Source: Vulcanimicrobiaceae bacterium (GTDB lineage: Bacteria > Vulcanimicrobiota > Vulcanimicrobiia > Vulcanimicrobiales > Vulcanimicrobiaceae). Taken from it: 64,000 nt of DNA. Location of the stretch: positions 57,395 to 121,394 of the forward strand of contig JBEKPS010000004.1 in NCBI GenBank assembly GCA_049520515.1, given 5' to 3'. Positions 17,273 to 51,005 of the stretch are shown here, piece by piece. Both the position numbers and the translations under genes were made by a program. The stretch's first letter is position 1, and every line of letters begins with the position of its first letter. The notes below the pieces were generated by a model. The model had not been told where the DNA came from. It saw only the letters and a program-made list of their open reading frames with translations, and did not search any database.

Positions 17273-17302
17273 CGCCTCCGTAGCTCGGGAAATTGCGACG
17301 GC

Positions 17303-23918: not shown

Positions 23919-23954
23919 CTTTTCGCGTGTTCTACAGAAGGACTCCTTTGCCCG

Positions 23955-30364: not shown

Positions 30365-31101
30365 AGGACTCGTCGCGGACGACGACCGCAACCGATGTGC
30401 GTCAGCCGGAAAATCAATATGGAGCGGTCGAGGAAGATGACGATGTACGCGAGCGCTACCAACTTACGGCCAGCGTGTTGCTTCCGTATCTACACTCGGG
30501 AATGCGCGTGCTCGAGATGGGGTGCTATCGGGGCGGGCTACGTCAGTTCTTTCCGCGAGATCTGGACTACCATGGAGTTGATTTCGATCAAGCTGCGTTG
30601 CAAACGGCCGAGGCGCGAGGCATCGTTCCGCATGTTATGGATGCCGACCGCGGATTTCCGGAGGGTTTGCCGTCCGAATCGTTCGACGCGGTCATCGCAT
30701 GCGAAGTGCTCGAACATCTCGTGAATCCGCGCGCCATTCTTCGAGACCTGGTGCAACGGTGCAAGAGTGGAGGGCGCGTCCTCATCAGTCTTCCAAACGA
30801 AAATACGTTGTATCATCGGTTGATGTCGCTTTCGGGCCTCGGCGTCGACTCTTGCGCTTTTGAGCTGTATAAGCACCTTCACTTGCCGACCATCGCGCAG
30901 AGCCGAGCATTCATCGCCGGGGAGGTGAAGATCCTGACCGAGAAATCCTACGTTCTTCCGTCCGTGAAAAATACGCGGCTTGAGGGCGCCGGTGCAGTCA
31001 TGAGAATTATTCCTCGGCGTGGCTGGCAAGTGTTGGCCGATGTTATGCCCGGTTTGTTTGCTCGGGGAAGAATCTACTTGGGCACCCCGGCGAATCGCTA
31101 G
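30361..31101 (+). CDS. Class I SAM-dependent methyltransferase
   Basis: 246 aa. VLEMGCYRGG, VIACEVLEHLVNP, CKSGGRVLISLPNE. The ATG overlaps the previous stop (ATGA). Confidence 0.85.
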   Translation: MKDSSRTTTATDVRQPENQYGAVEEDDDVRERYQLTASVLLPYLHSGMRVLEMGCYRGGLRQFFPRDLDYHGVDFDQAALQTAEARGIVPHVMDADRGFPEGLPSESFDAVIACEVLEHLVNPRAILRDLVQRCKSGGRVLISLPNENTLYHRLMSLSGLGVDSCAFELYKHLHLPTIAQSRAFIAGEVKILTEKSYVLPSVKNTRLEGAGAVMRIIPRRGWQVLADVMPGLFARGRIYLGTPANR

Positions 31102-31111
31102 GAACCGTCTC

Positions 31112-32122
31112 GTGTCACCTCCGGAAATTTCCGTCTTCTTACCCTCCGTTCGGCGACCGTCGACGTTGAAGGACGCACTCGACGCGCTCGTTGCGCAAAC
31201 GTTCCGTGATTTCGAAGTGCTTATGGTATTCAATTTCGCGGAAACCGAGACGAAAGCAGTAGTAGATCAATACGAGAGCCAGCTGCGCATGCAAAGAATT
31301 CACGCTACTGGAGGTCTCGTAGAGGCCGCGAACCTGGCGGTAAAGGCGGCTAACGGTGAGATATTCATTCGAACCGATGACGACGCCGTCGGTTCCCCGC
31401 ATTGGCTCGAAGGCATACACGAGACATTTGCATCCAGCGCGGACATCGGTGGCGTTACGGGGCCGACAACGATTCCTCAAGCGAACCTTGACGGGCGCGA
31501 CCTAACGCTGCTGTATCAACGGATGGATAACGGTTCGCTACCTTGGCGCCTCATGGGGAAACTCTATAAAGGCTGGATTCTGGAAGGAAAGGGTAACGAA
31601 GTTTCTCGCTTCCTCGATTCCGGCGCGTTTACGCTCGGGTCGAATTTCGTTGCTGCGCGTTCGTTGCCGGGCCCACTCGAAGTCGACCATATGGAAGCGT
31701 GCAACTGGGCAGCGAGAACCGTTCTGCTTCGAAGAATCGGCGGTTTCGATCCCGCCTACCTCGAGCTCGGCGAGTACCACGAACCTGACGCCTCGTTCAA
31801 GATACGCAAACTCGGCTATAAGGTCGTCTTCAATCCGAAGGCTGCAATCGAACATCGGCCGTCGATCCTAGGCATATTCAAGGCTCGGCCGAAGGCGTTT
31901 ACAAGAAGTCAGAACTTTTTGTTATTTTATTTCCGGCACATTCGCCCGCGCCGTCCTCAGGGCTGGCTGCGCTTTCTCGTTTACCTCGGCATGATGAACG
32001 GCTACTGGTGCTACAAGGCATTTTGCACTCGAGATTATCGGCCGGTGCTGGGCGTTCTGGGTACAGTTGTCGGTGCGATCCGGTATGCGCCGGAGCTCTT
32101 CCGGCCGCGATCAGCTTCATAA
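31112..32122 (+). CDS. GT2 glycosyltransferase
   Basis: I chose GTG31112 (VSPPEISVFLPSVRRPSTLKDALDALVAQTFRDFEVLMV). DxD-type motif RTDDDAV. The track start at 31019 overlaps the preceding gene. Confidence 0.8.
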   Translation: MSPPEISVFLPSVRRPSTLKDALDALVAQTFRDFEVLMVFNFAETETKAVVDQYESQLRMQRIHATGGLVEAANLAVKAANGEIFIRTDDDAVGSPHWLEGIHETFASSADIGGVTGPTTIPQANLDGRDLTLLYQRMDNGSLPWRLMGKLYKGWILEGKGNEVSRFLDSGAFTLGSNFVAARSLPGPLEVDHMEACNWAARTVLLRRIGGFDPAYLELGEYHEPDASFKIRKLGYKVVFNPKAAIEHRPSILGIFKARPKAFTRSQNFLLFYFRHIRPRRPQGWLRFLVYLGMMNGYWCYKAFCTRDYRPVLGVLGTVVGAIRYAPELFRPRSAS

Positions 32123-33334
32123 GTGCTCGCACAAAGAGTCGACGTAAGGGAAGGCAACGATCCTAAGATCCGGATCGGAATGGTAACAACGTTGCAGCCG
32201 GAGTCGCACGTCGCGCGTTTCTTGCTTGCCGAGCTTCAAAAAATCGAACCGGTGGCAATCCTATGCGAGCAAGACGCTCGTAATGCCGAAGCCCCTTTCG
32301 AAGACGTCTATCAGTTGTGGACGGTTGGGTCGCAGTTCAGAGCTGCAATCCTCAAAACGGTGCGTGCGCTCGGCATTCGAGTGCTGCATATCCACCACGA
32401 ATTCAATATGTACGGTAAACTCGGTTTACTCGAATTTCCGCGGCTGTTGGGCGATCTCAAGAAGTTAGGCGTTAGAACGCTGGTTACGGTTCACGGCGTC
32501 ATTCCTCCAGACGTGATCGACGATGCGTTCGCCACGACGTTTGGAGTGCCCAAGTTTCCATTGTCGTCGCACGTCTATCGCGGCGTCTTCGGCAAGTTCT
32601 ATCGGGTCTTGGCGAAATCTGCGGATGCCATTCACGTGCACTCCGAACGCTCCAAGCGTGATCTCGTCGATTATTATGGTGCGCGACCCGATCATGTCCA
32701 CGTGATTCCCGTTGGGATCCCGTTTTCAGAACCCAGCTCGGAATTGCCGCTCGCGCCCTGGGTGCCGTTCGTCAACGAATCGACACTGTTGTTCTTCGGC
32801 TACGTCCTGCCGCGCAAGGGCCTCGAAGTCCTCATCCAAGCATTTGCTCGCGTGCGTCAGGTCGTCCCCGAAGCGCGCCTCATCATCGCGGGCGGCGAGC
32901 TTCCCGCACATCAGCAATATGCGCAGTCGCTTCGCGATTTGGTTTCTCGATCGGGTCTGAGCGACAGCATCGTCTTCACCGGATTTATCAGCCACACGGA
33001 GATGCGCTGGCTGTATCGAGAGGCGGCCGCCGTCGTATTGCCGTACACGATTTCCGTGTCGAGCAGCCTTCCGTTGTCCTTCGCAGTTGAGGCTCGAACG
33101 CCGGTCATAGCGTCCGACTTCGAACAGTTTAGCGAGATTTTGAGAGAGTATCGTTTCGGCAGTCTCGTCAAGGCCGGCGATGCCACGGCCCTTGGCGACG
33201 CATGCATCAAGATGTTGACGGATGGCGAGTTCAGAGAATCGTGCGCAGCAGAAGCCGAGCGCTGCGCGAACGATCTATCTTGGGCAAACGCGGCAGTTCG
33301 TGCACACGCTCTCTACGAGAATCTTGCCTCATGA
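32123..33334 (+). CDS. GT4 (GT-B fold) glycosyltransferase
   Basis: 403 aa. FFGYVLPRKGLEVLIQAF, LIIAGG, VVLPY..S.SSSLPLSFAVE resemble the Glycos_transf_1 C-domain pattern. Confidence 0.85.
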   Translation: MLAQRVDVREGNDPKIRIGMVTTLQPESHVARFLLAELQKIEPVAILCEQDARNAEAPFEDVYQLWTVGSQFRAAILKTVRALGIRVLHIHHEFNMYGKLGLLEFPRLLGDLKKLGVRTLVTVHGVIPPDVIDDAFATTFGVPKFPLSSHVYRGVFGKFYRVLAKSADAIHVHSERSKRDLVDYYGARPDHVHVIPVGIPFSEPSSELPLAPWVPFVNESTLLFFGYVLPRKGLEVLIQAFARVRQVVPEARLIIAGGELPAHQQYAQSLRDLVSRSGLSDSIVFTGFISHTEMRWLYREAAAVVLPYTISVSSSLPLSFAVEARTPVIASDFEQFSEILREYRFGSLVKAGDATALGDACIKMLTDGEFRESCAAEAERCANDLSWANAAVRAHALYENLAS

Positions 33335-34413
33335 ATGTCGTGCCCGGGCGAGTTTCAGTCATCATCGTAAACTACAACGCTGTGAGCTATGCTCAAGCGT
33401 GCCTGCGCGCGGTCTTGGCTAATGAGTATCGCGATTACGAGATCATCGTCATCGATAATGGTTCGAAAGACGGAAGCGTGGAAGCCCTCACGAGCGAATT
33501 CGGCAACGCCGGAGTTCGCGTGATTGCACTCGGCGAAAATCTCGGGCCCTCCGCCGCTCGCAACCTTGCTGCGCGCGAAGCCACGGGCGAGTACTTTGCG
33601 TTTCTCGATAACGATACCGAACCGAAGCCGGATTGGATAACCCGCGCCGTTGAAAGGTTCCAAAGTGAACCAGACGTTGCGGCCATCCAATGCAAGCTGC
33701 TGCTGTTACGTCAACCCGACTGCTTTGACTACGTCGGTGACTACCTGGGTTCGTTCGGCTTTCTCATTCAACCGGTGCATGGAGGAGACAAGGACGTCGG
33801 TCAGGCCGAATCGTCTTACGAGATTCTCAGTGCAAAGTCTGCGGGAATGTTCGTCCGATCCGATGCTTTTCGCCACGTTGACGGATTCGATGACGATTAC
33901 TTCATCTACGTAGAGGAGACGGACCTCGGCCTAAAGCTTTGGCTTGCTGGGTACCGCTCCGTCTACGAACCCCGCTCAGTTGTATTGCACGCGTTTGGTA
34001 CGAGCGCTATATCCTCACCCGACCAGCATCATTATCGCGCGAGATTTCACGGGACAAAGAACTACGTCCTAACGCTGGTGAAGAATCTCGAAACGTCGAC
34101 GCTCGTTCGAATTTTGCCGATGCACGTGGCACTTTGGCTAGGCTTTGCCGGACTCAACATGGCGAAGGGACGGGTGCGCAGCGGGTTCTGGATATTGTCT
34201 GGTTTGTGGTGGAACGTTGTGAACTTACCGCGGACCCTTGCCAAGCGAAGAGCCGTTCAAGCGAAACGAAAGTGGAGCGATTCGGTGATACTCGCACGAG
34301 TGGGCCGGCGCGACAGCCTGCGCAGCCTCTACGCGAAGGCTACAGGCGTACGAGCCATCGGAAATTATCGCCCGGGAAATTTAGGCGTTTCGGCCGGGCA
34401 GAATAAGCCCTGA
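33331..34413 (+). CDS. GT2 glycosyltransferase (rhamnosyltransferase-like)
   Basis: ATG33331 overlaps the previous stop (ATGA). VSVIIVNYNAVSY..YEIIVIDNGSKDGS, FLDNDTEP, DDDYFIYVEETDLGLK. Confidence 0.85.
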   Translation: MNVVPGRVSVIIVNYNAVSYAQACLRAVLANEYRDYEIIVIDNGSKDGSVEALTSEFGNAGVRVIALGENLGPSAARNLAAREATGEYFAFLDNDTEPKPDWITRAVERFQSEPDVAAIQCKLLLLRQPDCFDYVGDYLGSFGFLIQPVHGGDKDVGQAESSYEILSAKSAGMFVRSDAFRHVDGFDDDYFIYVEETDLGLKLWLAGYRSVYEPRSVVLHAFGTSAISSPDQHHYRARFHGTKNYVLTLVKNLETSTLVRILPMHVALWLGFAGLNMAKGRVRSGFWILSGLWWNVVNLPRTLAKRRAVQAKRKWSDSVILARVGRRDSLRSLYAKATGVRAIGNYRPGNLGVSAGQNKP

Positions 34414-37400
34414 ACAACGAGCAGCCAGAGTAGACCATAGGCCCACAGGCTAGCGATCATACTGTCGCTCTCGGGTTTAGCGTCGCAATAGACTGCGGAA
34501 GCGACGAGCATCGCCATCGCACTGCAGACCAGCAAAAATGGTGGGACAACCTGTTCGCTGGAAGGCTGTTCCGGTTTGGCTCCCCGACTCGTCCGAACGA
34601 GAACGATGCTGAATGCGAGTGCGGCCACAGCGATAACAGCTCCGATGAGAAATAGAATGGCCGGCGCGTAGACAAACCATACAGTGGACCGTTCAGAAGC
34701 CGTATCGATAACGAACGCCGATGACCCGCGCAGGATGGCTTCCGTGGGGCCCGTCGCCGCTCCGGGACCTTCAAAGCGGGCGACGATGTGGCCGGGCAAC
34801 ATGATCCAACGCTTAACGTCATTCACGTTGATACCGAGCGCGCACCGTCGACAATTGCGCAGATCGACACGGAATATCCAGGGCAGTGGATGCGTGAAGC
34901 TCGCGATATCCGCGGAGCTTACCTCGGGGGCGGCGTTACTCGATCGCGTAAACAGCACGCCGTTTGGGCCCAGCTCCTCGAGGCGCACATCGCGCAAGCT
35001 TACGTCTCCGGCTGCATACGTCGAGACTTTAAAGCTCATGATCCCGCTGCTCGTTGCGTCGGGGAAAACGTCAAAGATGGAACGGTGCCACGCCCCGTCA
35101 CTGGACATGGTTTCCAGGACTGCTTGTCCACCGTCGAGTCGTACGCTAAGCGCCCCCGTTACTTTCGTCCGATAATTGAGACTCAATCTGTAAGCGGTGC
35201 CAACCGACAACAGGGCTGTCGTTGTCCAGTTAACCGTGCCGGTGAAGTTTACTTGTCCTCGTCCGCTCGTGTATCGCGCCGCGAGTGGATCGGTTGGATC
35301 GCTCCAATTATTGATTTGAACGGGATAGCCTATATTTGTCGCATCGAGTACGGGATAACCAGCACCAAGTTGCGCGCGAACGAGTGCGCGAACGTCCTTC
35401 ATCTTCGGCGATAACGTTCGAACAGGCCGCAATTGAATTGAACCATAGGTAACCGAAGCGCCGATCAGGCCGGCTTTCGGCTTCAACAAGCCATACGATG
35501 TATCGCGGGACCCGTCAGAAACACGTAGAGCATCGTTCACCAACGTATCGAATTGCGTGAGGTTCGGTATTACTGTCTGCGAGTTTGCGACGAGCGATAT
35601 GCGGAGCGGAGACTTTCCCGTGCAAATTCGCTGCACGTGTGGGGTCAAATCTACGGCACCGGCGTACCATTCGGTCGGATACGCCACGGCTATGGCGTGG
35701 GCGCGTCCGCATTTATCGAATCGTACGTAGCGTGTTTGCGGATTCGAGACGAGCAAATCCAACTCGCCGCGTAGTTGCGTGCTTCCAATTGGCTCAGCGA
35801 CTGCCGTCAGCGGCGGCAAGACGTTCGACTGATCGACCGGGCTCAGGAGCATACGGTTCGGAAAATCGTCCAGTCGAAAGTTAACGTTCGGACTGAGGTC
35901 AAGCGAGCCCACAATTGTGTGGAGCGATCGTTGCAAAGCATCGGTGCTCATCGCAATTGGATTCTGAAGCGAATGTACGATGCTACCGGGTTGAGCGATC
36001 AGCTCGTACAAATCGAGCTGAGCCGAACTGTAGACCGGCCGAGCGTGGTCGTGCACTAGCGCTCCTAGCGCCAGAGGAGGCGTCACGCCGTTCTTCACGT
36101 CGCGGTGAACAACGACGTAGCGAACGTTCAACCATCGCAAAGCGCGTTCAAGACGTGTTTCCGGAGCGTCTTGCAATCCGTTCGCGACATCGGTGAAATC
36201 CGTAATCGGGTTGCGCGCAAATCCGAGCAGCGGGTCCTGGCCTACGTATCCCCACGTAAAGAGCGGATAGGGAGGAGCGCCGGAATTGAAGATAACCGTC
36301 CGCTCTGTTGGCGGCGCGCGTCTGAGAATCCGAGCGACATCACTGTATGACACCGGGACGTTCGTGAGAAATGCCGCTCCGCCGGCCTCGGAGGGATTCC
36401 GCAACATCGATCCCGCGAAGGCCGGCCAAGGATAGACGCATGTCGCGAGAATCCCGATCACGACACAAGCTATCGCAGACAGCCACCTCAGCCGAAGCCC
36501 GTTCGCTAGCCAGCTTGCGAGCGAAGCGAGTGACATTCCAAAGAGCGTTGAGATCGCGAGAATGCCGAGCGGCATCCACTTATCCCACGGTGACCGGAAG
36601 ATGGTGAAACCCGGAACGTGGTCGATGAGCGCCGCATAGATGAATCCGAGCGGCGCGTGCGTACCCTTCGCCAAAAAATCGGTCACAAGGAATGTTACGA
36701 GCAACATCGCGCCAAGCCGAGGTCGAAGGCGTCCAAAGCACAACACCGCGATGAGCAGCGGCAAATATCCGAAGATGTCTGCGTTGAGGCTCGTGTACCA
36801 ACTCGCATGCGGAATGTCGAGTCCGCCGGTGGTCCCGTCGAACTTGAAAAGTCGAGCGAAGCTCGAACGCTGGCTCATCCATTCGAGCCAGGCCGTAACG
36901 CTGAAGTTTGTGACGGTACGTAACCCTGTCGAGATGATCGTTGGGAGCGTCAATAACCACCACGCGCAGCCGAGCAGGCCGAGGATTGTACCGAAGATGG
37001 CAGTCTTTATGATTCGGCCTTGCGCGCGGCCCTCGACGATAAACCACATTGCAGCGATGGGTATGACGAGCAGGAGCACGCCGAAACGGGCGACGTTGGT
37101 TGCTGAACCGCCATCGATGATGATCGCGATGGCAACGATTCCAATTCCGGTAAGCGCCCGGCGTTGAGCCCCGATGCACACGCCGTACGCCACCCACGGA
37201 AGCGCGGCATAGCTGAGCATGAGATCGAAGATAGGGCCGCTGTAAGCCCAAACAACGTACGCGTTGACACCGTAAACGAGGGCGGCGAAGAACGAACCTA
37301 TCTCGGCTTGTTCTTCAGTCACACGGTCTTGCAGTACGGCTCGAACAAGTGTGTATTCGCCAAGAAACGTCAGGAAAAACATCGCCGCAAAAACAATACG

Positions 37401-37718
37401 CTCGATCGCGGGCGGCGAAAGACCGAAGGCTTGTAACGCGGAGGCTGTAGTCAGCAGCGGGAAAAGTGCTCCGAGCCACAGCGCTCCGTTATATCCTAAT
37501 CCGGTGTAGTTATGGTAAATGCCGGCGAGGTCGAGCAGATACGATGTCGGATCTGCCCAGACCGCGCTTGCATCGCCTCCGATCAGTACTCGCGACGTTC
37601 CGAAGTTCGCAATTACAATCCAGAATGAGAGCGCTGCGAATAGGCTAATAATCAGTGCGCGAGAAGGGAAGCGGCTGCCGCTAGAGGCAGTACGCAGGCT
37701 GAAATGCTCAGCCGTCAA
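34365..37718 (-). CDS. Giant GT-C-like membrane glycosyltransferase, AftD/DUF3367-like (paralogue 1)
   Basis: 1117 aa. Roughly a dozen N-terminal hydrophobic segments. The first loop reads IGGDASAVWADPTSYLLDL..GLGYNG; other motifs are PGFTIFRSPWDKW and LNVRYVVVHRD. About 550 aa of non-membrane region follow, then C-terminal TM helices. TTG start. Confidence 0.75.
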   Translation of the reverse strand: MTAEHFSLRTASSGSRFPSRALIISLFAALSFWIVIANFGTSRVLIGGDASAVWADPTSYLLDLAGIYHNYTGLGYNGALWLGALFPLLTTASALQAFGLSPPAIERIVFAAMFFLTFLGEYTLVRAVLQDRVTEEQAEIGSFFAALVYGVNAYVVWAYSGPIFDLMLSYAALPWVAYGVCIGAQRRALTGIGIVAIAIIIDGGSATNVARFGVLLLVIPIAAMWFIVEGRAQGRIIKTAIFGTILGLLGCAWWLLTLPTIISTGLRTVTNFSVTAWLEWMSQRSSFARLFKFDGTTGGLDIPHASWYTSLNADIFGYLPLLIAVLCFGRLRPRLGAMLLVTFLVTDFLAKGTHAPLGFIYAALIDHVPGFTIFRSPWDKWMPLGILAISTLFGMSLASLASWLANGLRLRWLSAIACVVIGILATCVYPWPAFAGSMLRNPSEAGGAAFLTNVPVSYSDVARILRRAPPTERTVIFNSGAPPYPLFTWGYVGQDPLLGFARNPITDFTDVANGLQDAPETRLERALRWLNVRYVVVHRDVKNGVTPPLALGALVHDHARPVYSSAQLDLYELIAQPGSIVHSLQNPIAMSTDALQRSLHTIVGSLDLSPNVNFRLDDFPNRMLLSPVDQSNVLPPLTAVAEPIGSTQLRGELDLLVSNPQTRYVRFDKCGRAHAIAVAYPTEWYAGAVDLTPHVQRICTGKSPLRISLVANSQTVIPNLTQFDTLVNDALRVSDGSRDTSYGLLKPKAGLIGASVTYGSIQLRPVRTLSPKMKDVRALVRAQLGAGYPVLDATNIGYPVQINNWSDPTDPLAARYTSGRGQVNFTGTVNWTTTALLSVGTAYRLSLNYRTKVTGALSVRLDGGQAVLETMSSDGAWHRSIFDVFPDATSSGIMSFKVSTYAAGDVSLRDVRLEELGPNGVLFTRSSNAAPEVSSADIASFTHPLPWIFRVDLRNCRRCALGINVNDVKRWIMLPGHIVARFEGPGAATGPTEAILRGSSAFVIDTASERSTVWFVYAPAILFLIGAVIAVAALAFSIVLVRTSRGAKPEQPSSEQVVPPFLLVCSAMAMLVASAVYCDAKPESDSMIASLWAYGLLWLLVVQGLFCPAETPKFPGR

Positions 37719-38552
37719 GACGTGCTTCCATCGCTATCATGCGATCGGTTATCCGAGGCACAACGAGCGCGCCTGGACCTGTGGTATCGTCGTTCGCGCG
37801 ACATCTTGGCTCGCTTCGCGGACCTGCAGGCAGAACCCGCGCTTCAATATTCACTTTATGATTCGTACCAGGAGTTCAAGAAACTCGAGACCCTCATCAA
37901 ATGGGCTCGAGATCTGACGTCGCGATCGGGAAAACGGATTCGTGTTCTGGATATGGCGAGCAGCATTGGAAATATTTCCGTGCCTCTGGCCAAGATTGGC
38001 TGCGAAGTCCATGCGGTCGAGGTGAACAAGGAAAGCATTGCTTGTTTGCGGGCCTTGTCGCCCGATGTCATCATCCACGAGACGTCGCTGCTTAATTTGC
38101 AACGAGCCGATCTGGGCGCAGACTTCGATCTTATCATCGCCGCGGACGTGCTTGAACATCTCGCCAAACCACAAGACGTCATTCAAGATGCCTACGACCT
38201 TCTAAATAACGGCGGGACGTTTGCTGTCGCGATCCCAAACGGCTACGGCCCGTTTGAACTCTTGCTCGATATTCCAGTGACGACCGTGAAACGGTTGCTA
38301 AGACGCATAGACAATGAATATGATTTTCACGTCCAGTTCTTTACGCTCGAACGTTTCCGAAGACTAACCTCGGCCTTTGAGATGACATCGGTCGAGAACT
38401 TTTCGTTTTTGGGTTTTTATCCACAAATCAACGGCTCCCGCTTAGCGAAACTCGATTTCGAGTTTAGCCTCCGGCTCCCCCACGCGGTCGCTTCGCGGTG
38501 GCTCATCCGGTTGGAAAAGTTACAGTCAGCTGGTGCACTGCGGAATGGATGA
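37704..38552 (+). CDS. Class I SAM-dependent methyltransferase
   Basis: 282 aa. IRVLDMASSIGN, IIAADVLEHLAKP, LNNGGTFAVAIPNGYGPFE. ATG37704 would overlap the divergent TTG37718 start; GTG37722 is an alternative. Confidence 0.8.
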   Translation: MLSRQDVLPSLSCDRLSEAQRARLDLWYRRSRDILARFADLQAEPALQYSLYDSYQEFKKLETLIKWARDLTSRSGKRIRVLDMASSIGNISVPLAKIGCEVHAVEVNKESIACLRALSPDVIIHETSLLNLQRADLGADFDLIIAADVLEHLAKPQDVIQDAYDLLNNGGTFAVAIPNGYGPFELLLDIPVTTVKRLLRRIDNEYDFHVQFFTLERFRRLTSAFEMTSVENFSFLGFYPQINGSRLAKLDFEFSLRLPHAVASRWLIRLEKLQSAGALRNG

Positions 38553-41500
38553 TGCTTTCGCTAAGCTCAAGCTTTGGTCGATTGCAACTATCGGTTTCCT
38601 TGCCGCCGGACTGGTCTCGACGTTTCAACTCTGGCAACAAGGCGGAGTAGTCGGCCACAACTGGGATTGGCCCGTAAATTTCGATCCGGGTGGAGCGCGC
38701 GTGCTCGCGCACGCCGCACTGAGTACGTGGTGGTCCCTGGAGTTGGGGTTGACGAGCTTGGGTGCCTCAATTGCGCCCTTCGCTTACCTCTCGGCACTTT
38801 TTGCAGATCACGCCGGCTTCTACTCGCACCTGCTCTTGATCGTTCTACCGACGCTCGGTGCGCTCGCGGCGATGGCGCTCTGCGGCGAAGTTCTCGCCGC
38901 GATGGAGCTGCAGGCTCCGCTGGCCGCGTGGATAGGCGGGCTCGCATTCGGTTACTCGCCGTTGTTTTTCAACGAAATGCACGGGGGAGCGCTGACACAA
39001 GTTCTCGCCCACGCGTCGTTGGCATTGGTCATTGCCTTAGTAGTAAGATTCCGAACGCGCGGTGATTGGCCGGCGCTGCTCATCGCCGCCATTTGTTCGC
39101 CGCTCGTCGCGTTATCAGTGACTGATTTTGCGCTGATGTACGGTATTGCGGCAATCCTCTTGTTTGGGAATATTCGAGCGTTCGGGGTGTTCGCCGCGGC
39201 GGTCTTAGGACTCAATCTCTATTGGTTGCTTCCGTTCATCTATAACATCCCGATGGTTTTGCGCGCACCAAGCTATGCCGCTACCGTTGGAAATCTGAGC
39301 ACTGGAGTACCACAACCCTGGCAGCTCTTCACGCTCAGCGGATACTTCTTTTCATTCTTTGATAACGCTCAGCCGAATCTGGTAGCGATATCCGGAATCG
39401 CAGCACTTGTGCTCGTATTCGGCTCAATCTGGCTTACGATTCAGTCGGGGGTCGCCCGCAGACTGGCCCCGTTTTGGGTTATGTTTTTCCTCGGAATCGG
39501 CAGTGCGAGTGTCGCCGCGGGTCCTCTCGCCCAGTTAATGCTCTGGATATATGGTCATGTGCCTGGCGTCAACGCTCTGTTCCGCTCACCGCAGCATTTG
39601 TTGATCGTTCCGGCGATAAGCGGTGCGGTCATTATCGGGTGTGGTTCAGCCTGCGCGCTGCGGCGATGGGGAGAGCGAGTCGTCATCGTCATTCCTCTCC
39701 TGGGCATCGCCCTCGCGGCGCGGCTTCCATATTTTACGGGAGACATGTCCTCAAAGTATTTGACTGCGCTTTACCCGGGGCACGGGTTTAGCACGTTTAC
39801 TCCATCTCCCGGCTATCTGCAGGCCTTGCAACAGCTCGAGAATCTTCCGCCTTCCGAACGTTACAAGAGACCGCTATTCGTGCCGCCGACCCTTTCGCCG
39901 CTGTATAAGCGAACGAGGCTGCAATCAGCCGCCCAAGGCGGGGATCCATCAATGCCGTTCCTGCGCGACGAGAGCGGTTCCATCGCCGGGCTTTCACAAG
40001 CGCTCACGCCGGATGGGGCGATTATCGAGGACGGTTTCTTTAGCCGTTTCCCCGAATCGTTAGAGACGGGCTTGTCTGGGGTTCTCGACATCTCCCACGT
40101 CGTGCTTCGCTACGATATTCTCGCGAATTGGGAGCCTTTTGCGCAGGACCCACTCATTACATTAAAGACCCAAGATGTTCTCGATAGAGACCCGCGCCGC
40201 TGGAAGCGCGTTCTCGATGAGGATTTCGTCCGTCTTTACAAGGGCAACGCACCGCCGCACGTGTTTCTCTCCGGCAGACTTCTGCAAGCAACAGCGGACC
40301 CATCCGACTTTGCAGATGTCGAGCTTGCCAACTCTACATCCGCAATTGCGCTCAGCGGCGCGTCACCGTCTCTACGTTTCAGCCGGAGCGACTATTCGTT
40401 CGAGCCGCTTTGCGATTGGCAAATAGAGCGAAGCGCAGCAGATCAGCCCTTTGACATCGTAACGCGACGCCGAACAGTTGTGATTGATACTCCAGGCGAC
40501 TATATCGTCGCGGTCAAGTGGAATGGGATCGGACAGATTGCCGTGCCTCAACTGCAAATTGACGGTCGCATCGCATCAAGCTCGGGTGCGGTTACGCTGC
40601 CCCGCCGCGATATGCGGAATGCGGATTTGGCGCGCTTGTCGAGAGACTGGGCCAAGGGTCCTAGATTGAACTACCACACGATCGCAGACGGTGTGAACAC
40701 CGGCGGTCTTTTATGGGAACCGCAAATCGCGCCCGCGACCGGTGCCGTAGTGTTCACGTCACAGCTGCCCGATGGCAGGCTCATCTACGTTGGGCCCGAC
40801 GACCGAGCCTATGTTGGAACTGCAAAGGACTTTTATGGAAATTTCGGATCAGAAGGCGCGCGTATAAATCCGCTGAGCACAGCCATCCCGGTTACATGGA
40901 GCTCACTGTTCTTCCGTACGCGGACCGATTCGATCGATGTCGCGCGACGCGCGGGCGCACGCTGGGCGAGGTATGCCATCGTTCCCCTCTCAAGAGGGAA
41001 ACACGTCCTCGAATGGTCATCGACCGATGGCGTTCGAGCCTTTGCGGTCATTCCGCACGATTCGATCCCGGAAATCGCCGACTACGATTATCCCGACGCA
41101 TCCGTGATCGGTATTCGTGGTCCGGAACAGGACGAGAGCGTTTTGCGAACGTTCAATCTCGCAGCACCCAGGCGTCTCAACGTTTCCGCGGTCGTATTCA
41201 AGCCGGCTGGGACTGTGGCTCAAATTCTCATTGATGGAAAGACCTACGCGCTAGGCCTGAAAGACCGGACGTATAGCAAATACGCCCGAACGGTCTCGGT
41301 GAGCATCGACCTGCGCGCCGGCGACCACACATTGAGATTTCCAACCGACGGATCCGTCGAGCGCGTTTTCCTCATTCGGGATCGCTTGCCGGCGGATAAC
41401 ATCGAGGCGCTATCCTTAAAGAAGTGGAAGATGTTTTTGTGGGTCGTAGACGTCCCGGCTCGCACTAAGCCGGTCGTACTGGGATTCCTCGAGTCTTACA

Positions 41501-41712
41501 ACAACGGATGGATACTGCGCGAGATTCCCAATGCTCGGCACATCGTGCTCGACGGCTACGCCAACGGCTGGATCTTGCCCGCAGGGCCCGAGCAGCAGAT
41601 TACGATCTTCTATAAGGGACAAGTCTGGGTGTGGATCGGTGAAGTCGCCAGCACAATCGCTCTTCTAATCGTCTTGGCCGGAATTCTTTTGAAACGCCGA
41701 GCTCGCACATGA
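38545..41712 (+). CDS. Giant GT-C-like membrane glycosyltransferase, AftD/YfhO-like (paralogue 2)
   Basis: About 1055 aa from ATG38545 (track start GTG38533). The start overlaps the preceding methyltransferase stop. First loop GHNWDWPV; further motifs SPLFFNEMHGGAL, PGVNALFRSPQHL, LDISHVVLRYD. C-terminal LDGYANGWIL..ITIFY is followed by a single TM anchor. Confidence 0.75.
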   Translation: MDDAFAKLKLWSIATIGFLAAGLVSTFQLWQQGGVVGHNWDWPVNFDPGGARVLAHAALSTWWSLELGLTSLGASIAPFAYLSALFADHAGFYSHLLLIVLPTLGALAAMALCGEVLAAMELQAPLAAWIGGLAFGYSPLFFNEMHGGALTQVLAHASLALVIALVVRFRTRGDWPALLIAAICSPLVALSVTDFALMYGIAAILLFGNIRAFGVFAAAVLGLNLYWLLPFIYNIPMVLRAPSYAATVGNLSTGVPQPWQLFTLSGYFFSFFDNAQPNLVAISGIAALVLVFGSIWLTIQSGVARRLAPFWVMFFLGIGSASVAAGPLAQLMLWIYGHVPGVNALFRSPQHLLIVPAISGAVIIGCGSACALRRWGERVVIVIPLLGIALAARLPYFTGDMSSKYLTALYPGHGFSTFTPSPGYLQALQQLENLPPSERYKRPLFVPPTLSPLYKRTRLQSAAQGGDPSMPFLRDESGSIAGLSQALTPDGAIIEDGFFSRFPESLETGLSGVLDISHVVLRYDILANWEPFAQDPLITLKTQDVLDRDPRRWKRVLDEDFVRLYKGNAPPHVFLSGRLLQATADPSDFADVELANSTSAIALSGASPSLRFSRSDYSFEPLCDWQIERSAADQPFDIVTRRRTVVIDTPGDYIVAVKWNGIGQIAVPQLQIDGRIASSSGAVTLPRRDMRNADLARLSRDWAKGPRLNYHTIADGVNTGGLLWEPQIAPATGAVVFTSQLPDGRLIYVGPDDRAYVGTAKDFYGNFGSEGARINPLSTAIPVTWSSLFFRTRTDSIDVARRAGARWARYAIVPLSRGKHVLEWSSTDGVRAFAVIPHDSIPEIADYDYPDASVIGIRGPEQDESVLRTFNLAAPRRLNVSAVVFKPAGTVAQILIDGKTYALGLKDRTYSKYARTVSVSIDLRAGDHTLRFPTDGSVERVFLIRDRLPADNIEALSLKKWKMFLWVVDVPARTKPVVLGFLESYNNGWILREIPNARHIVLDGYANGWILPAGPEQQITIFYKGQVWVWIGEVASTIALLIVLAGILLKRRART

Positions 41713-42047
41713 GATCATTTCTATTGGCGATCGTTCTTGCCGTGGGCGCGTTCGAAGTTGGGCACATCCCTGATCTCCATTGGCTCGCGATTGTGCTTTA
41801 TTGTTGCTGCATCGTCGTTGTTCTCGGCACCGCCATTTCACCTGGAGGCTTAAGGGCGACGCTCAGGATCGATATCGATCGCAAAATTGAAGTTCTCATC
41901 GTTGGGTTTCTTCTTGCGGTGACGTCGTTTGAGCTCCGTCCCGCACCTGACGCGCGTTGGATCGGCAACATTGCGTTTTGGGTGACCGTCTGTGCCGTCG
42001 TCGCCGGCATCTTTACCAATCGTGACGAACCGAGCGACGTCCGTTGA
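41709..42047 (+). CDS. Small 4-TM membrane protein with internal two-hairpin duplication
   Basis: 112 aa. The ATG overlaps the upstream stop (ATGA), and its own stop overlaps the next start (TTGA). The halves LLAIVLAVGAFEVGHIPDLHWLAIVLY.. and IVGFLLAVTSFELRPAPDARWIGNIAFW.. align (LAV, FE, PD, W conserved). Confidence 0.6.
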   Translation: MRSFLLAIVLAVGAFEVGHIPDLHWLAIVLYCCCIVVVLGTAISPGGLRATLRIDIDRKIEVLIVGFLLAVTSFELRPAPDARWIGNIAFWVTVCAVVAGIFTNRDEPSDVR

Positions 42048-42784
42048 AGAAGCAGCTCAACGAGATTTGGCGGGATGTCTGGCAAGCAGTCGCGATCGAC
42101 GATCTCGAGGTTGGTGAAGGTTGCAGCGATCCTTGGACTCAGATCCATACGCCGATCGTAAACCGATGGCTCGCTACACTGCCGCCCGGCCCTATCTGCG
42201 AAATGGGTTGCGGCCTTGGGCAATGGACGCGCTATTATGCTCGAGTCGGCCGCGAAGCCGTCGGGATCGATCTCGTGAGCGATGCCGTTGAAAAAGCGAG
42301 CAAAAAAGCCTCGGATTTAGGGCTTTCAAAGGCGCGATACGTCGTCGCAGATGCTCGCAAGATGCCCTTCGAGGACCGCACATTTGCCGGCGTGAGCAGC
42401 TTCGGTGTGGTCGAACATTTTTGGGATGCGGACACGCAAAGCTTGATCGACGAAACATTTCGCATTCTTTTGCCGGGAGGACGACTTCTGCTCACAACGC
42501 CCAACGTGTGGAGCATGCATAGCTTGACGCGTCCGATTCTTCAAGCACTCGGAAAATGGAATCTGGGTCTCGAGCGTTCGTTCAGCCCGAGCCGGCTTGC
42601 GTCATATTGTTCACGCGCCGGGTTCGCGATCGTTGAAAAAGGCGTGCTCGTTTCAGGGACGCTCTTCGGCGCAGTCTTGACCGAGCGAATTCCCGGGCTC
42701 GACGCGCTAAGCCGATGGATCGAACGGCGACAATCGCTGCTCGGTTTCGTCAGCTACGTAATTGCCGAGCGCCCACGAGTTTGA
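42044..42784 (+). CDS. Class I SAM-dependent methyltransferase
   Basis: 246 aa. ICEMGCGLGQW, VSSFGVVEHFWD, LLPGGRLLLTTPN. TTG start. Confidence 0.85.
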   Translation: MKKQLNEIWRDVWQAVAIDDLEVGEGCSDPWTQIHTPIVNRWLATLPPGPICEMGCGLGQWTRYYARVGREAVGIDLVSDAVEKASKKASDLGLSKARYVVADARKMPFEDRTFAGVSSFGVVEHFWDADTQSLIDETFRILLPGGRLLLTTPNVWSMHSLTRPILQALGKWNLGLERSFSPSRLASYCSRAGFAIVEKGVLVSGTLFGAVLTERIPGLDALSRWIERRQSLLGFVSYVIAERPRV

Positions 42785-44996
42785 CGACGACGACTACGAG
42801 CCAAAGCCAGCCTAAGATTTCAGCACAAAACTGCAGCAGCGCAGGTAAGTAGAGAATCGTTATCCGGCGTTCTTTTTGAGCGGCCGAGACCAACCATCCG
42901 TTTGCGACACCGTCAATGCGGACGTGTGGAAGAGAGTTGAGCCCGTCAAGAGCAAGCCATCTCGGTGCGAACGCGACATTCAATCGAAGCGCGCCGGTGG
43001 CATTTGCGGGCAACGTTGCCGTCATCAACCACGAAAGGACCGTGTGTCCGACAGCCCGAGGTGGACTGAGGTCGTTTTCCGTCCTTACCTTTATATCGGG
43101 GGGCTCGCCTTGGGCGATCAGTAGGCAGGTTCCATGGCAGCGTACTCCTGTCGTCGACCGCGGCAACGTAATCCATCGAAGCGAGGGAGTGTCGTGCGCC
43201 AAGACCGTCCCGTTCTCGTCCGTCAAGCTACCGCGCACGTTAGCCAAGAGCTGCTCGCGAGCATCAACGGGGAAAAGCTGCTGCGACGCCGTCGCGACCC
43301 CTCCAAAGCCTTGCGATAGCTCTGGATGGCTCGCGAAGAGAAGCCGAGCGTCGACCCAGCCGAGCGAAAAGTCTGCGTTGTCGATCGACGAATGTAAGAC
43401 ATGAAAGTCGACTGACGTTGATGAGGGCAAGTCGGCGAAAAAGATCGCGTTGTCCCATGGCTGGGGTGGAATGTCGACCGTCTGCGGCGCACCCCAAAAC
43501 GTAATCTCCGGTAGCGCGGAAAGTGCTGTTATCGTCGCCTGCTGCGTGGCGTTCGCGCTCGTGCTCATTCGTGCGACCGGAAACGTATGCGCAAGCGTCG
43601 CGTCGTCGGTTGAGAGCCAGGGCCGTGAAACGACGGTCGAGACGCTGAGGCTTTGAAGTGGGCGTGCGTCGCCATTTGCGAGCCAATCGCCGAACGCAAA
43701 CGTGGAAGGATAGTCCGGAAGATAAGCATTCAACGGCGTAACGTTATCCGAGCGGATGAAAAGGTCGGGATCGGAGCCCGAACCCTTCCCACGCGCGCTG
43801 AATGGCTGAAATGGCGGCAGAAGAGCAAATCGCGTGTCGGGCGGCGCGTTGAACTCAACCTTTGGCAGCGACGCGACATCGAACCAATAACGCGAGGGTG
43901 CCCCGGCTATCCACGCGATCGCGAAGAGCGGTGCCAGCACAACGACAATGGTACTGGAAATCGGCACGTTCTTCACTGCTCTTGCAGCGAGAACGAGATA
44001 CGCGACGAGAACAAAGGCAACGAGGTCATAAAGCTCGCGAAAAAGTGCGACTCCTCTAACGTGATCGAGCAGAAAACTGTACAGCGGCGCGGTTGGCCCA
44101 CTCAGTCCGCTGATAAACAGAAGTAGGATCGCCGTGATAATCGGAATTCCGAGGTAGATTTTTCGTCCGTAAATACCGGCGAGGGCTACCAGGACGAAGA
44201 GGCCGACGAGGTATGACGCAAATGCCGGCATGCTGTCTGCATATCCGAAGGCATAACCGCCCAACAGCACGGCCTTCCAAAATGGAACCGACTGCGAAAT
44301 CTGCCACACCCGCAGTAACGGAATTTGGCTGAGCGCGAACTGCGAAAACAGGATGCCGATGATCGTAGGCAGCGCAACAATGAGCGTCGATGCATAGGGG
44401 GCGATGCTGCGGACTCGGCGAGCATAGAACGCGAGCAGTACGGTATCCAAGACGAAGAACTGCGTCTGTACGTAGGCGGCGATCATCGCGAGCGAAAGCG
44501 CAAAAGGCCTAGGCGTTTCTCTTCGCAGCTCTGCAGTTAGGTGAAGCGTTGCACCCAAAGATAAGAGCATCGGAAGATGACCGGCCACGAGCTCGTTAAA
44601 AGTCCATGGATTGAAGATCGCAATCAAGGCGAACGCCGTTTGAACGACGGGAGAGGCCGCGTCGGCGATTCGTGCTGCTCCCGTTCCGATGACGACAGCG
44701 ATGCAAAAGAGGAACAGCATAAGCGACCAGTGTGCGCCAAAAATGTAATTCAAGACGCCCGTCAGGGGATCGAGGTCGCAGCCGGTGAGAAACGCATAAG
44801 GTCGGCCGAAGCCGAGCGGTGACCAGCCGGAAATGCTCTCGGCAATGTGCGACGTGATGTCTTCGTTTCCGATTGGCCACGACCAGTCGTGACGCAGACC
44901 CGGTACCGATGTCTGCCATAGGGCTGCGACCGCGAACGCGGCACACGCCAACAGCAGAATGATGAATGCTCCGCGCCTAGCGGCTAACGTTTGCAA
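42750..44996 (-). CDS. GT-C-like membrane glycosyltransferase (paralogue 3)
   Basis: 748 aa. First loop RHDWSWPI; further motifs NPWTFNELVAGHL and RGVALFRELYDL. C-terminal IDGVANGWLV..ITILY is followed by a TM anchor. TTG start. Confidence 0.75.
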   Translation of the reverse strand: MQTLAARRGAFIILLLACAAFAVAALWQTSVPGLRHDWSWPIGNEDITSHIAESISGWSPLGFGRPYAFLTGCDLDPLTGVLNYIFGAHWSLMLFLFCIAVVIGTGAARIADAASPVVQTAFALIAIFNPWTFNELVAGHLPMLLSLGATLHLTAELRRETPRPFALSLAMIAAYVQTQFFVLDTVLLAFYARRVRSIAPYASTLIVALPTIIGILFSQFALSQIPLLRVWQISQSVPFWKAVLLGGYAFGYADSMPAFASYLVGLFVLVALAGIYGRKIYLGIPIITAILLLFISGLSGPTAPLYSFLLDHVRGVALFRELYDLVAFVLVAYLVLAARAVKNVPISSTIVVVLAPLFAIAWIAGAPSRYWFDVASLPKVEFNAPPDTRFALLPPFQPFSARGKGSGSDPDLFIRSDNVTPLNAYLPDYPSTFAFGDWLANGDARPLQSLSVSTVVSRPWLSTDDATLAHTFPVARMSTSANATQQATITALSALPEITFWGAPQTVDIPPQPWDNAIFFADLPSSTSVDFHVLHSSIDNADFSLGWVDARLLFASHPELSQGFGGVATASQQLFPVDAREQLLANVRGSLTDENGTVLAHDTPSLRWITLPRSTTGVRCHGTCLLIAQGEPPDIKVRTENDLSPPRAVGHTVLSWLMTATLPANATGALRLNVAFAPRWLALDGLNSLPHVRIDGVANGWLVSAAQKERRITILYLPALLQFCAEILGWLWLVVVVVKLVGARQLRS

Positions 44997-45036: not shown

Positions 45037-45912
45037 GTGGTAGCGCACGATTATGCGCCATACTGCCGTGTTTTTCCGCTGACACTCCTCGTCGCTGTCG
45101 CAGTCGGCTTACTGCTGGGCGCAGCTTTCGTGGTGCAGTTTGCTTCGGACGGATTGTTCCAAACCGGATCGGTGGCTCATTCCGTTCCGAGAACTGTCTC
45201 ACAGCGAACGGCGCTGAGCATGTATCAATGGGTTAGCGAGTCGCCGGTTGCGCCCGCATTCGTTCGGGCGATCGTTGCACGAGCCGACATCGACGAGGGT
45301 AGTTTGAATACGGCGGAACGTTTGACCGCCTCGCTTCCGCCTGGTCCACAGCGCGCCGACCTCGAGGGAGATTTGCTGGCCCGAGATGGAAATCTGCGGC
45401 TCGCAGTGTCGCGCTTTATGGACGCCGGAGACACGGCGCGCGTTGACGCATATGTCGACAATCTCGTCGCTGCGGGAAGTTTTGAAGCAGCAGTGACGAT
45501 GCAGCGACTCTTGGTCGATCGGCTGCGGCAATTGCGCGACCAAGGACGTCTCGCGCAGGCAGAATGGCGTTTGGCGCAGATCGAGTCCGCGACGGGCGAC
45601 CACATTGCCGCGGGCCGTGACTACGACGCAGCGCTTAGGCTTATTCCGCTTTCCGAAACGTATCTTCTCGGAGCAGCAAACGAAGCGCTTCAATTCGGTA
45701 GCCTGCATGAGGCCGGTGAATATTTCGATTCGGTCGTTCGGCTCGATCCCGCGAGCCTTGACGGCCACATCGGAGTCGGTCGCGTCGCTGCGCGACAGGG
45801 CGACCTGGTGCGTGCGCGAGGGGAGGCCGAATTTGTACGCGCGCACGTTCCCACTTACCCCGATCTTCAGACGCTCGAGGATGAGATTGCGCGTGCGAAG
45901 ACTACGCGCTGA
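45037..45912 (+). CDS. Membrane-anchored TPR-like repeat protein
   Basis: 291 aa. N-terminal TM (FPLTLLVAVAVGLLLGAAFVV), then helical repeats with TPR-like A/L/Y/G spacing (e.g. AGRDYDAALRLIP, EAGEYFDSVVRLDP). GTG start. Confidence 0.6.
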   Translation: MVAHDYAPYCRVFPLTLLVAVAVGLLLGAAFVVQFASDGLFQTGSVAHSVPRTVSQRTALSMYQWVSESPVAPAFVRAIVARADIDEGSLNTAERLTASLPPGPQRADLEGDLLARDGNLRLAVSRFMDAGDTARVDAYVDNLVAAGSFEAAVTMQRLLVDRLRQLRDQGRLAQAEWRLAQIESATGDHIAAGRDYDAALRLIPLSETYLLGAANEALQFGSLHEAGEYFDSVVRLDPASLDGHIGVGRVAARQGDLVRARGEAEFVRAHVPTYPDLQTLEDEIARAKTTR

Positions 45913-46444
45913 AAATCCTGTCGAACGTTAGCGTGAGATTAGGTAGCGTCGCCGCGGGCATGTCGGATTCGAAGGTGGCAATCTCTTCATAGCAGTCACC
46001 TGCTGGATGACTGCAGCGCTCGATCGTGTTTTCGTCTGGATCGACGATCCAATATTCGGGTACGCCGAATCGCGCGTAGATGTCGCGTTTACGTCCGCGA
46101 TCGACGCCCTTCGTGCCGGGTGAGAGAACCTCCACAATCAAACTCGGGATGCCGATCACAGCTTTGTCACCCAGCGTGTCCTGTCGATCAGGAGCGATGA
46201 AGATGACATCCGGCTCGACGACGTTCTGTGCACTCAAGACAGTGTCGAGCGGAGCGACATATACGTGGCCGCCCTTTCGTCGTGCATGGGTGCTGAGAGC
46301 GATTGCAATGGCGAGCACGAGGCCCTGATGGCGCCGCGTCGGCGAGGGAGTCATGTAGAGCTCGCCGCCGAGAATCTCGCGGCGGAGGTTGTCGTCGGGG
46401 AAGGACTCGAGGTCCTCGTAGACCAGCGGTGCTTGAGTTGCCAT
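45902..46444 (-). CDS. Uma2-family (DUF820) putative restriction-endonuclease-like protein
   Basis: I set the start at ATG46444 (MATQAPLVYEDLESFPDD). ELYMTPSPTRRHQ, PDVIFI, LIVEVLSP, KRDIYARFGVPEYWIVDP match the Uma2 pattern. The track's longer ORF overlaps the neighbouring gene. Confidence 0.85.
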   Translation of the reverse strand: MATQAPLVYEDLESFPDDNLRREILGGELYMTPSPTRRHQGLVLAIAIALSTHARRKGGHVYVAPLDTVLSAQNVVEPDVIFIAPDRQDTLGDKAVIGIPSLIVEVLSPGTKGVDRGRKRDIYARFGVPEYWIVDPDENTIERCSHPAGDCYEEIATFESDMPAATLPNLTLTFDRIFSA

Positions 46445-46496
46445 TGCGTGCTCCACACACAACCCTATCACGACGCCTGCTCCGGCGGAAAGGCCC

Positions 46497-50960: not shown

Positions 50961-51005
50961 GGCTTTCACCGGGAGATACTGCCGGAAGAGGGCAAGGTTT
51001 CGCGG

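Follow-up and report, generated by a model that had tools for sequence, protein, structure and literature searches.

The stretch of DNA analysed here, a window of 64,000 nucleotides (positions 57,395 to 121,394 of contig JBEKPS010000004.1, assembly GCA_049520515.1), comes from a metagenome-assembled genome (MAG) of an uncultured soil bacterium of the Vulcanimicrobiaceae (Eremiobacterota). At ~5-46 kb it carries one large glycan locus, which includes epimerases and two UDP-glucose dehydrogenases, and in which three very long membrane proteins, here termed A, B and C, are encoded. Their open reading frames (ORFs) were found where the original prediction had placed them (Table 1), and both A (ABSE64_07465) and B (ABSE64_07475) are entered in the NCBI record as "hypothetical protein". 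Profile and structure comparisons show that the three proteins belong, in the broad sense, to the AftD superfamily, in which they form separate branches. As far as their chemistry can be inferred, it is probable that they are AftD-branch enzymes of the GT-C (GT-C_A) class of glycosyltransferases (GTs), which would pass sugars from polyprenyl-phosphate donors onto the glycan of the locus.

The layout claimed for these proteins, i.e., a block of membrane segments at the N-terminus, then a large soluble region, and an anchor at the C-terminus, is borne out by hydropathy and by structural models. In each of them approximately eleven helices fall within the first 365-430 residues (as read from hydropathy, and from models for B and C): Kyte-Doolittle hydrophobic segments span residues 21-428 in A, ~100-401 in B, where the first transmembrane (TM) helix, TM1, is helix 4-35 of the model, and 9-364 in C. 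The non-membrane region that follows comprises 350-600 residues (~590 in A and ~350 in C), and after it come one C-terminal TM helix in B (1035-1053) and in C (712-741) and three in A (1021-1109). In the translations of all three proteins basic residues are present upstream of TM1. This agrees with an N-terminus in the cytoplasm, by which the first loop and the large domain would lie outside.

When compared by BLASTP, B and C share 24% identity over 368 residues (E 2e-5) and A and B 25% over 358 residues (E 0.018), while for A and C a 29-residue patch alone is aligned (E 0.008). Such weak E-values would suit the explanation that the three proteins are unrelated and that their likeness comes from hydrophobic composition and chance motifs, and so would the Smith-Waterman score of A and C, which is inseparable from shuffles (z = 2.5). 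As a chance control the scores were set against 100 shuffles, either global or made in 20-residue blocks that preserve the hydrophobic layout, and similarity above the shuffles was retained both for B-C (z = 17 and z = 11, respectively) and for A-B (z = 6.4 and 5.5). Comparison of family alignments (37 sequences for C, 6 for B and 3 for A) by hhalign covered all three pairs with probabilities of 95-98%: C-B across the membrane module (98.3, E 2.5e-14), B-A over 423 columns (97.6, E 4e-12) and C-A within the C-terminal sandwich and anchor (94.8, E 5e-8), by which the gap left between A and C by pairwise alignment is closed. Moreover, a single hidden Markov model (HMM) made from 46 diverse B-type relatives scores all three proteins (B 568, A 84 (83.9) and C 53 bits), and one and the same PDB entry is retrieved by the model of B and, independently, by that of C. 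Chance resemblance, the probability of which we put close to nil, is thereby refuted, and A, B and C are, judged by their sequences, true paralogues that diverged anciently and not recent tandem duplicates. The original prediction had described them as three tandem paralogues; the paralogy stands, whereas the label "tandem" is loose, since the strand changes from each of the three genes to the next, and two methyltransferase genes and a gene of a 112-aa membrane protein stand between them.

Single-sequence searches are nearly blind for these proteins. In Pfam, A matches PF11847 (GT-C_AftD) at E 3.7e-5 and 22.3 bits, where the gathering threshold is 26, and B and C have no match to any GT-C family, the only line of B being a spurious sub-threshold match to a tify domain. 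The phmmer search of A against the PDB gives noise only, and that of a Pfam-positive AftD-like protein from a related locus (L030) gives nothing; the C-family profile retrieves spurious phycocyanin matches only (E >=0.04). NCBIfam returns nothing for A and B, and its sole match for C is MmpA (NF053599, residues 80-218, E 2e-7), at 30 bits against a cut-off of 210. An affinity to YfhO, which had been claimed beside that to AftD, is left without support, as PF09586 has no Pfam match at E<=1 in A, B and C and none in the 37 C-type or 46 B-type relatives; PMT_2 and DUF2029 likewise have no match at E<=1 in A, B or C.

The claimed relation to AftD was upheld by larger profiles and by structural models. 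The profile of the six B-family sequences retrieves AftD alone from the PDB, through the C-terminal 'NGW' strand and the anchor (E 0.014), and the profile of 46 B-type sequences again retrieves AftD alone (E 1.5e-5), this time in three collinear pieces, namely the membrane module, the motif '(I/V)xY(L/V)V(L/V)RxD' ('ISYLVVRND' in AftD) and the C-terminal motif. In Pfam, 5/46 of these relatives weakly match PF11847, and none of them matches another GT family. A is aligned by hhalign with a Pfam-positive AftD-like protein at a probability of 95.7. The AlphaFold model of C (m3860352c1dae; pLDDT 90.7, pTM 0.92) has as its top Foldseek matches three AftD entries of M. abscessus (6w98 at E 4e-9 and probability 1.0, with a TM-score of 0.55 normalised by query length), and ArnT comes next at E 0.015. 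The model of B (m83b65acc5d0d), confident in the membrane module and in the C-terminal sandwich, has AftD 6w98 at the top (E 1.4e-11), followed by STT3, AglB, PglB, ALG12, ALG9, Pmt4, ArnT and PimE. A GT-C fold nearest to that of AftD is well supported for B and C by these predicted structures. Since all three proteins stay under the Pfam threshold, they are to be regarded as sister families and not as members of AftD.

The matches of B to yeast and human STT3, AglB and PglB (E 6e-4 to 6e-3, probability 1.00) also bring in a different function, in which one or more of the three proteins would transfer a polyprenyl-diphosphate-linked oligosaccharide en bloc, either as an oligosaccharyltransferase glycosylating proteins or as a polymerase- or ligase-like enzyme, in place of adding single sugars from polyprenyl-monophosphate donors. 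We regard this as improbable: AftD is ahead of these matches by seven orders of magnitude, the sequence-level links lead to AftD alone, and in the translations, which were read by eye and unsystematically, no 'WWDxG'-type oligosaccharyltransferase motif was noticed.

The short motifs listed in the original prediction proved to be real family signatures, which are invariant or nearly so in homologues. With this, the prediction has come through all three of the refuting conditions set for it, which concerned a GT-C profile or fold match, similarity above shuffled sequences and the motifs. In the first extracytoplasmic loop (EL1), the place of which after TM1 was read from hydropathy in A and from hydropathy and models in B and C, the B family has an invariant GHNWDW (G41 H42 N43 W44 D45 W46), the C family has RHDW (R35 H36 D37 W38) conserved to at least 90% in 37 sequences, and the A family has GGD (G47 G48 D49), invariant in a sample of 3 sequences only. 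D45 of B is invariant across the 46 diverse B-type sequences. All 42 sequences of the merged alignment keep the arginine of 'FR(S/E)P' (R351 in B, R320 in C and R375 in A), and 'VVxRxD' and 'NGW' are conserved in the family alignments as well. The fact that the EL1 aspartate and the arginine are kept over large evolutionary distances suggests a conserved active site. In AftD the residues K39, D41, E251, K361 and D474 are essential by experiment (10.1101/2019.12.22.885152). A direct mapping of AftD D41 to D45 of B was considered and dropped as unproven, because the loop alignments disagree.

The families are larger than a word-indexed homologue search indicates: such a search gave 6 matches for B and 3 for A, while with the B family an exhaustive profile search reached 6,106 clusters (50% identity, one representative each) at E<=1e-3, among them 1,968 at E<=1e-10. 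In the representatives the N-terminal ~600 residues are conserved and the remainder is variable, and a cluster look-up of 10 of them gave neither a name nor a taxon. Carbohydrate-binding modules (CBMs) of the CBM_4_9 family occur in 3/46 B-type relatives. In one metagenomic protein (P0077, 1127 aa) an N-terminal GT2 is fused to a B-type GT-C module (match 321-914), and this GT2 part shares 31% identity over 145 residues (E 1e-8) with the PpgS-like GT2 of the window. The C type is present in 116 genomic loci, nearly all of them in Eremiobacterota/Vulcanimicrobiota MAGs, and in most of these loci a ~1,300-aa ORF lies directly upstream on the same strand; in L030 this upstream ORF scores 48.4 bits against PF11847, which is above threshold. 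A profile of 14 such AftD-like neighbours retrieves AftD from the PDB (E 3e-8), is aligned by hhalign with the B-type family over 540 columns (probability 99.8, E 5.6e-30) and with the C family over the C-terminal 104 columns, and these links give A, B and C a firm place in the AftD superfamily, yet as separate branches.

Membership in this superfamily may also be read in terms of a scaffold. In corynebacteria, MmpA and the interaction of TmaT with AftD have been proposed to serve as a scaffold or carrier. MmpA is reported to resemble the N-terminal 668 residues of AftD, it is needed for trehalose-lipid transport, and no catalytic motif was recognised in it (PMC8698533). In C. glutamicum, AftD takes part in mycolate transport through protein interaction (bioRxiv 10.64898/2026.07.31.741767). 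Accordingly, at least one of the paralogues could be an inactive scaffold or carrier of GT-C fold, which in envelope assembly would organise methyltransferases or transporters. This would agree with MmpA being the sole, though weak, NCBIfam match of C, with the corynebacterial locus, in which AftD-like proteins and a methyltransferase are likewise mixed, and with the essential E251 of AftD having no conserved counterpart in B or C. However, each family keeps the EL1 aspartate and the invariant arginine across large distances, lipid-sugar synthases co-occur with the GT-C genes, and a GT2 to GT-C fusion and relatives with carbohydrate-binding modules were found, so that we assign a low probability to such a role.

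The coding features of the locus, together with A, B and C, are collected in Table 1.

Table 1. Features of the glycan locus, with positions counted from the first nucleotide of the window (GT, glycosyltransferase family; SAM, S-adenosylmethionine; TPR, tetratricopeptide repeat).
Feature	Position	Strand	Basis and remarks
Wzy_C-family membrane protein (O-antigen ligase/polymerase family)	10531-12255	-	PF04932 E 4.8e-17, above gathering threshold
GtrB/ArnC/PgfS-type polyprenyl-phosphate glycosyltransferase, full length	13016-14137	-	Second candidate donor synthase
Bac_transf phosphoglycosyl transferase	18463-19128	+	Pfam
MurJ	19148-20764	+	Pfam; passes TIGR01695 cut-off
RmlD	20757-21638	+	Pfam
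Epimerase/dehydratase	21596-22588	-	Pfam
UDP-glucose dehydrogenase	22575-24071	-	Pfam
Wzx-like flippase	23955-25259	+	Pfam
Short GT2, 269 aa, PpgS/ArnC/AglJ/Dol-P-hexose type	26243-27052	+	Candidate polyprenyl-phosphate sugar synthase
GT2	27015-28016	+	Pfam, NCBIfam
HpnJ-like B12 radical SAM enzyme	28071-29543	+	Best match HpnJ, E 2e-48, below cut-off
Methyltransferase	29564-30364	+	Pfam, NCBIfam
Methyltransferase	30361-31101	+	Pfam, NCBIfam
GT2	31019-32122	+	Pfam, NCBIfam
GT4	32123-33334	+	Pfam, NCBIfam
GT2, MftF/rhamnosyltransferase-like	33202-34413	+	Pfam, NCBIfam
Protein A	34365-37718	-	1117 aa; ORF list and translation; NCBI annotation also 1117 aa
Class I SAM methyltransferase	37704-38552	+	Pfam Methyltransf_11/12/23/25; overlaps starts of A and B
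Protein B	38533-41712	+	1059 aa from GTG start; 1055 aa from ATG at 38545 (NCBI annotation)
112-aa protein, four TM helices	41709-42047	+	Translation; candidate lipid-linked-sugar flippase
Class I SAM methyltransferase	42044-42784	+	Pfam Methyltransf_25/11/23
Protein C	42750-44996	-	748 aa; JGI annotation 733 aa
TPR-repeat protein adjoining C	45037-45912	+	Weak TPR Pfam matches

Donors for GT-C enzymes are linked to lipid phosphate and are used at the extracytoplasmic face of the membrane (10.1101/2019.12.22.885152), and here the GT-C genes share one locus with two types of polyprenyl-phosphate sugar synthase. The protein encoded at 13016-14137 matches PgfS with 289 bits over 3-304/308 and ArnC with 197 bits over 6-314/316 in NCBIfam, both scores being under the equivalog cut-offs, so that its type is assigned and its sugar is not. 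The short GT2 encoded at 26243-27052 is covered by the NCBIfam models of ArnC over 7-215/316 and of PpgS over 3-198/226. The GT2 gene beside A (33202-34413) was considered as a donor synthase too and rejected, since its product is MftF/rhamnosyltransferase-like and not ArnC/GtrB-like. Families of the decaprenyl-phospho-arabinose pathway (UbiA-type and DprE1/E2) are absent among the ORFs scanned with Pfam, all of which lie within the first 52 kb of the window.

The same gene content bears on en-bloc transfer, which would be favoured by the production of units linked to undecaprenyl diphosphate (phosphoglycosyl transferase and Wzx) and by the presence of just one Wzy_C-family protein for both the polymerase and the ligase roles. 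Against it stand the two monophosphate-type synthases of the locus, one of which co-occurs with the C-type gene across genomes.

The 112-aa protein shows an internal 2+2 repeat (GAFEVGHIPDLHW / TSFELRPAPDARW) and has no Pfam or NCBIfam match, the GtrA, SMR and MATE families included; the ends of its gene overlap B and the next methyltransferase gene. NCBIfam recognises the four methyltransferases of the window as generic class I enzymes only and connects none of them with MtrP or with any family of sugar O-methyltransferases. Three further ORFs on the minus strand, 9269-10579 (436 aa), 14577-15518 (313 aa) and 15494-17563 (689 aa), have no Pfam and no NCBIfam match, and an ORF that adjoins the locus or lies inside it (46497-48134, minus strand, 545 aa) has no Pfam match. 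Downstream, genes of a Uma2-family endonuclease, of an extracytoplasmic function (ECF) sigma/anti-sigma (zf-HC2) pair and of the alpha subunit of lysine 5,6-aminomutase occupy 45902-46753 (-), 49820-51098 (-) and 50673-52481 (+); synteny with a sister contig (L081) was seen for the sigma/anti-sigma pair and for the aminomutase gene.

On the best reading, A, B and C probably serve to glycosylate a methylated surface glycan in the periplasm with lipid-phosphate-linked sugars. Three-component systems for periplasmic glycosylation are known (PMC11127046), and members of the Vulcanimicrobiaceae, including the cultured Vulcanimicrobium alpinus, have an outer membrane covered with lipopolysaccharide (LPS; PMC9758169). 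According to the proposed mechanism, the cytoplasmic enzymes of the ~40-kb locus, i.e., the phosphoglycosyl transferase, the GT2s, the GT4, the four SAM methyltransferases and the B12 radical-SAM enzyme, would make a lipid-linked glycan and methylate it at O and C atoms, and Wzx would flip it to the periplasmic side. At the same time the GtrB/ArnC-type and PpgS-type GT2s would load polyprenyl phosphate with monosaccharides, and these lipid-sugar donors would be moved outward by a flippase, for which the 112-aa protein with four TM helices or a MOP-family protein are the candidates, the locus having MurJ-like and Wzx-like proteins of the MOP family. Each GT-C enzyme is pictured with a cytoplasmic N-terminus, ~eleven TM helices, an aspartate within the first loop on the periplasmic side and an arginine directly ahead of the final helix pair, followed by a large periplasmic region of alpha/beta and beta-sandwich structure, from which an 'NG(Y/V)ANGW' strand would lead to the C-terminal anchor. 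It would transfer a sugar from polyprenyl-phosphate-sugar to the growing or finished glycan, the acceptor site being picked by its own periplasmic domain, and as the three GT-C enzymes are different, three different linkages or branches are proposed. That the three elongate or branch one polymer, as the original prediction supposed, is still an inference.

There are several points that weigh against this interpretation. None of the three proteins attains the Pfam gathering score for PF11847; the structural models cover B and C only, A being tied to GT-C by profiles alone, and residues 584-894 of B are modelled at pLDDT <50. MmpA, the weak sole NCBIfam match of C, lacks demonstrated transferase activity (PMC8698533). 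Among the essential residues of AftD, plausible counterparts are found only for the EL1 aspartate and for the basic residue near 351-375; the alignment of EL1 is ambiguous, with 'NWDW' of B standing as an insertion relative to AftD-like proteins, an equivalent of E251 is not conserved in B or C when the B-type profile is compared with AftD, and for D474 and K361 no residue-by-residue alignment to A, B and C could be obtained. With regard to transport, the 112-aa protein as a flippase of lipid-linked sugars is a guess, and MurJ, since it passes its equivalog cut-off, may here simply be the housekeeping lipid II flippase.

The recurrence of the locus in relatives distinguishes a constant part from a changing one. 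In the sister contig L081 (65-72% protein identity) the order of A, methyltransferase, B, small protein, methyltransferase, C and TPR protein is kept, and the copy of the 112-aa protein, at 45% identity, lies in the same spot. Gene context was counted in 80 related loci (L001-L080) that carry a C-type gene, and the companions of this gene are the PpgS-like GT2 (59/80), DegT (59/80), a Pfam-positive AftD-like gene (58/80), GT9 (49/80) and MurJ (48/80); in L030 the orthologue of the GT2 encoded at 26243-27052 has PpgS as its best match. None of these 80 loci has the 112-aa protein, the radical-SAM enzyme, the TPR protein or the methyltransferase encoded at 37704, and five have the methyltransferase encoded at 42044. 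On these counts, a conserved frame seems to be made up of MurJ, the PpgS-like GT2 and C, and a variable insert of A, B and the tailoring genes. It is proposed that C is a phylum-wide core enzyme, and A and B rarer accessory paralogues of a variable cassette.

Between MurJ/PpgS-like GT2 and the C-type gene most genomes have GT9, the Pfam-positive AftD-like gene and DegT, and the window has there instead Rml/epimerase genes, Wzx, GT2/GT4, methyltransferases, A and B. A frame with a differing insert resembles a serotype-like variable cassette. In L083 and L085, too, a B12 radical-SAM enzyme is combined with GT2s, a methyltransferase and giants of the AftD superfamily, the radical-SAM genes lying at L083:3720-5213 and L085:3223-4746. 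Its presence in three loci that differ in other respects may point to a sugar modification out of the ordinary, e.g., C-methylation or ring chemistry. L085 further contains an independent array of three giants (L085:6405-19421), which is composed of two tandem A-type genes (1199 and 1190 aa) and one C/B-like gene (1010 aa), with two PF04185 phosphoesterase genes between the giants, and it also carries a GT2 similar to the PpgS-like synthase.

Among known systems, AftD itself (Rv0236c / M. abscessus; 6W98, 6WBX, 6WBY; PF11847, formerly DUF3367), as the top structural match of B and C, shares with them a GT-C module of ~11 TM helices, a large periplasmic region and a beta-sandwich that ends in the 'NGW' strand and a TM helix, and the motifs '(I/V)xY(L/V)V(L/V)RxD' and 'NG(W/Y)xxGW' align collinearly. 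However, identity in the structural alignments of B and C is <=14%; AftD has TM12 and a TM13-16 bundle that binds acyl carrier protein, whereas B and C have one C-terminal helix and A three; C is devoid of most of the three-CBM superstructure of AftD; and the host is not an actinobacterium but comes from a phylum of LPS-bearing diderms. Strict membership in AftD therefore fails, given scores below the Pfam threshold, the missing TM13-16 bundle and triple-CBM superstructure, and essential residues that are not all matched. MmpA (NCgl2761 / Rv0226c; NF053599) resembles C as a compact homologue of the AftD N-terminus, with ~11 TM helices and one periplasmic domain, and its gene lies near a methyltransferase and AftD (PMC8698533). 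Yet C matches it with 30 bits where the cut-off is 210, and MmpA is tied to trehalose mycolate transport. Trehalose mycolate is not expected outside Mycobacteriales.

The three-component systems (GtrA/GtrB/Gtr* of Shigella and Salmonella, and ORF12/14/15 of Citrobacter youngae with GT136; PMC11127046) likewise combine a GT-C enzyme with a carbohydrate-binding periplasmic domain. The present locus resembles them in that it also encodes polyprenyl-phosphate sugar synthases of the GT2 type (13016-14137, 26243-27052) and candidate flippases, and in its Wzx/Wzy-type surroundings. It differs in its GT-C proteins, which are of 750-1100 aa, AftD-like and three per locus, whereas Gtr*/GT136 are compact, and in its small protein of four TM helices, which matches neither GtrA nor SMR or MATE. 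With YfhO and ArnT/PMT_2-type enzymes A, B and C have in common the general GT-C layout, and ArnT aligns to C far worse than AftD does (E 0.015 vs 4e-9). A, B and C probably work like the AftD/Emb-type and Gtr-type periplasmic transferases.

Periplasmic modification by GT-C enzymes is a known add-on. The original prediction had held that the locus is not a textbook O-antigen or exopolysaccharide pathway, and this can be accepted in part: the textbook components are present (phosphoglycosyl transferase, Wzx and Wzy_C), and what is unusual in a Gram-negative-type lineage is the size, the number and the AftD affinity of the GT-C enzymes. The novelty consists in unannotated sister families of AftD that occur as a three-enzyme array in a diderm phylum, and is not that of a new principle. 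A much wider reading, which we offer tentatively and consider rather unlikely, is that Eremiobacterota, as LPS diderms, possess a phylum-wide periplasmic glycan assembly around AftD-superfamily enzymes. In such an assembly a core of MurJ, the PpgS-like synthase, an AftD-like protein and a C-type GT-C enzyme would flank a hypervariable cassette, represented here by A, B, the four methyltransferases, the HpnJ-like B12 radical-SAM enzyme and a novel flippase with four TM helices. Its product would be a branched, heavily methylated polymer, built largely outside the cytoplasm in the style of mycobacterial arabinan, and the B-type clade, with >6,000 clusters at 50% identity and without a Pfam model, would constitute a new glycosyltransferase family.

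Enzymes of the AftD type have been studied almost solely as builders of the mycobacterial cell wall and as relatives of drug targets. The present analysis indicates that their superfamily extends well past the present model of Pfam, with a B-type branch of thousands of unannotated metagenomic clusters and a C-type branch conserved across a whole, barely cultured phylum. The seed alignments supplied for new family models should be useful for annotation, and the candidate catalytic residues, donor synthases and conserved gene neighbourhood give handles for the envelope glycans of Eremiobacterota. Should the three enzymes indeed form distinct linkages from lipid-linked donors, nature would offer here, within a single compact locus, an example of how several enzymes tailor a glycan in the periplasm of a diderm.

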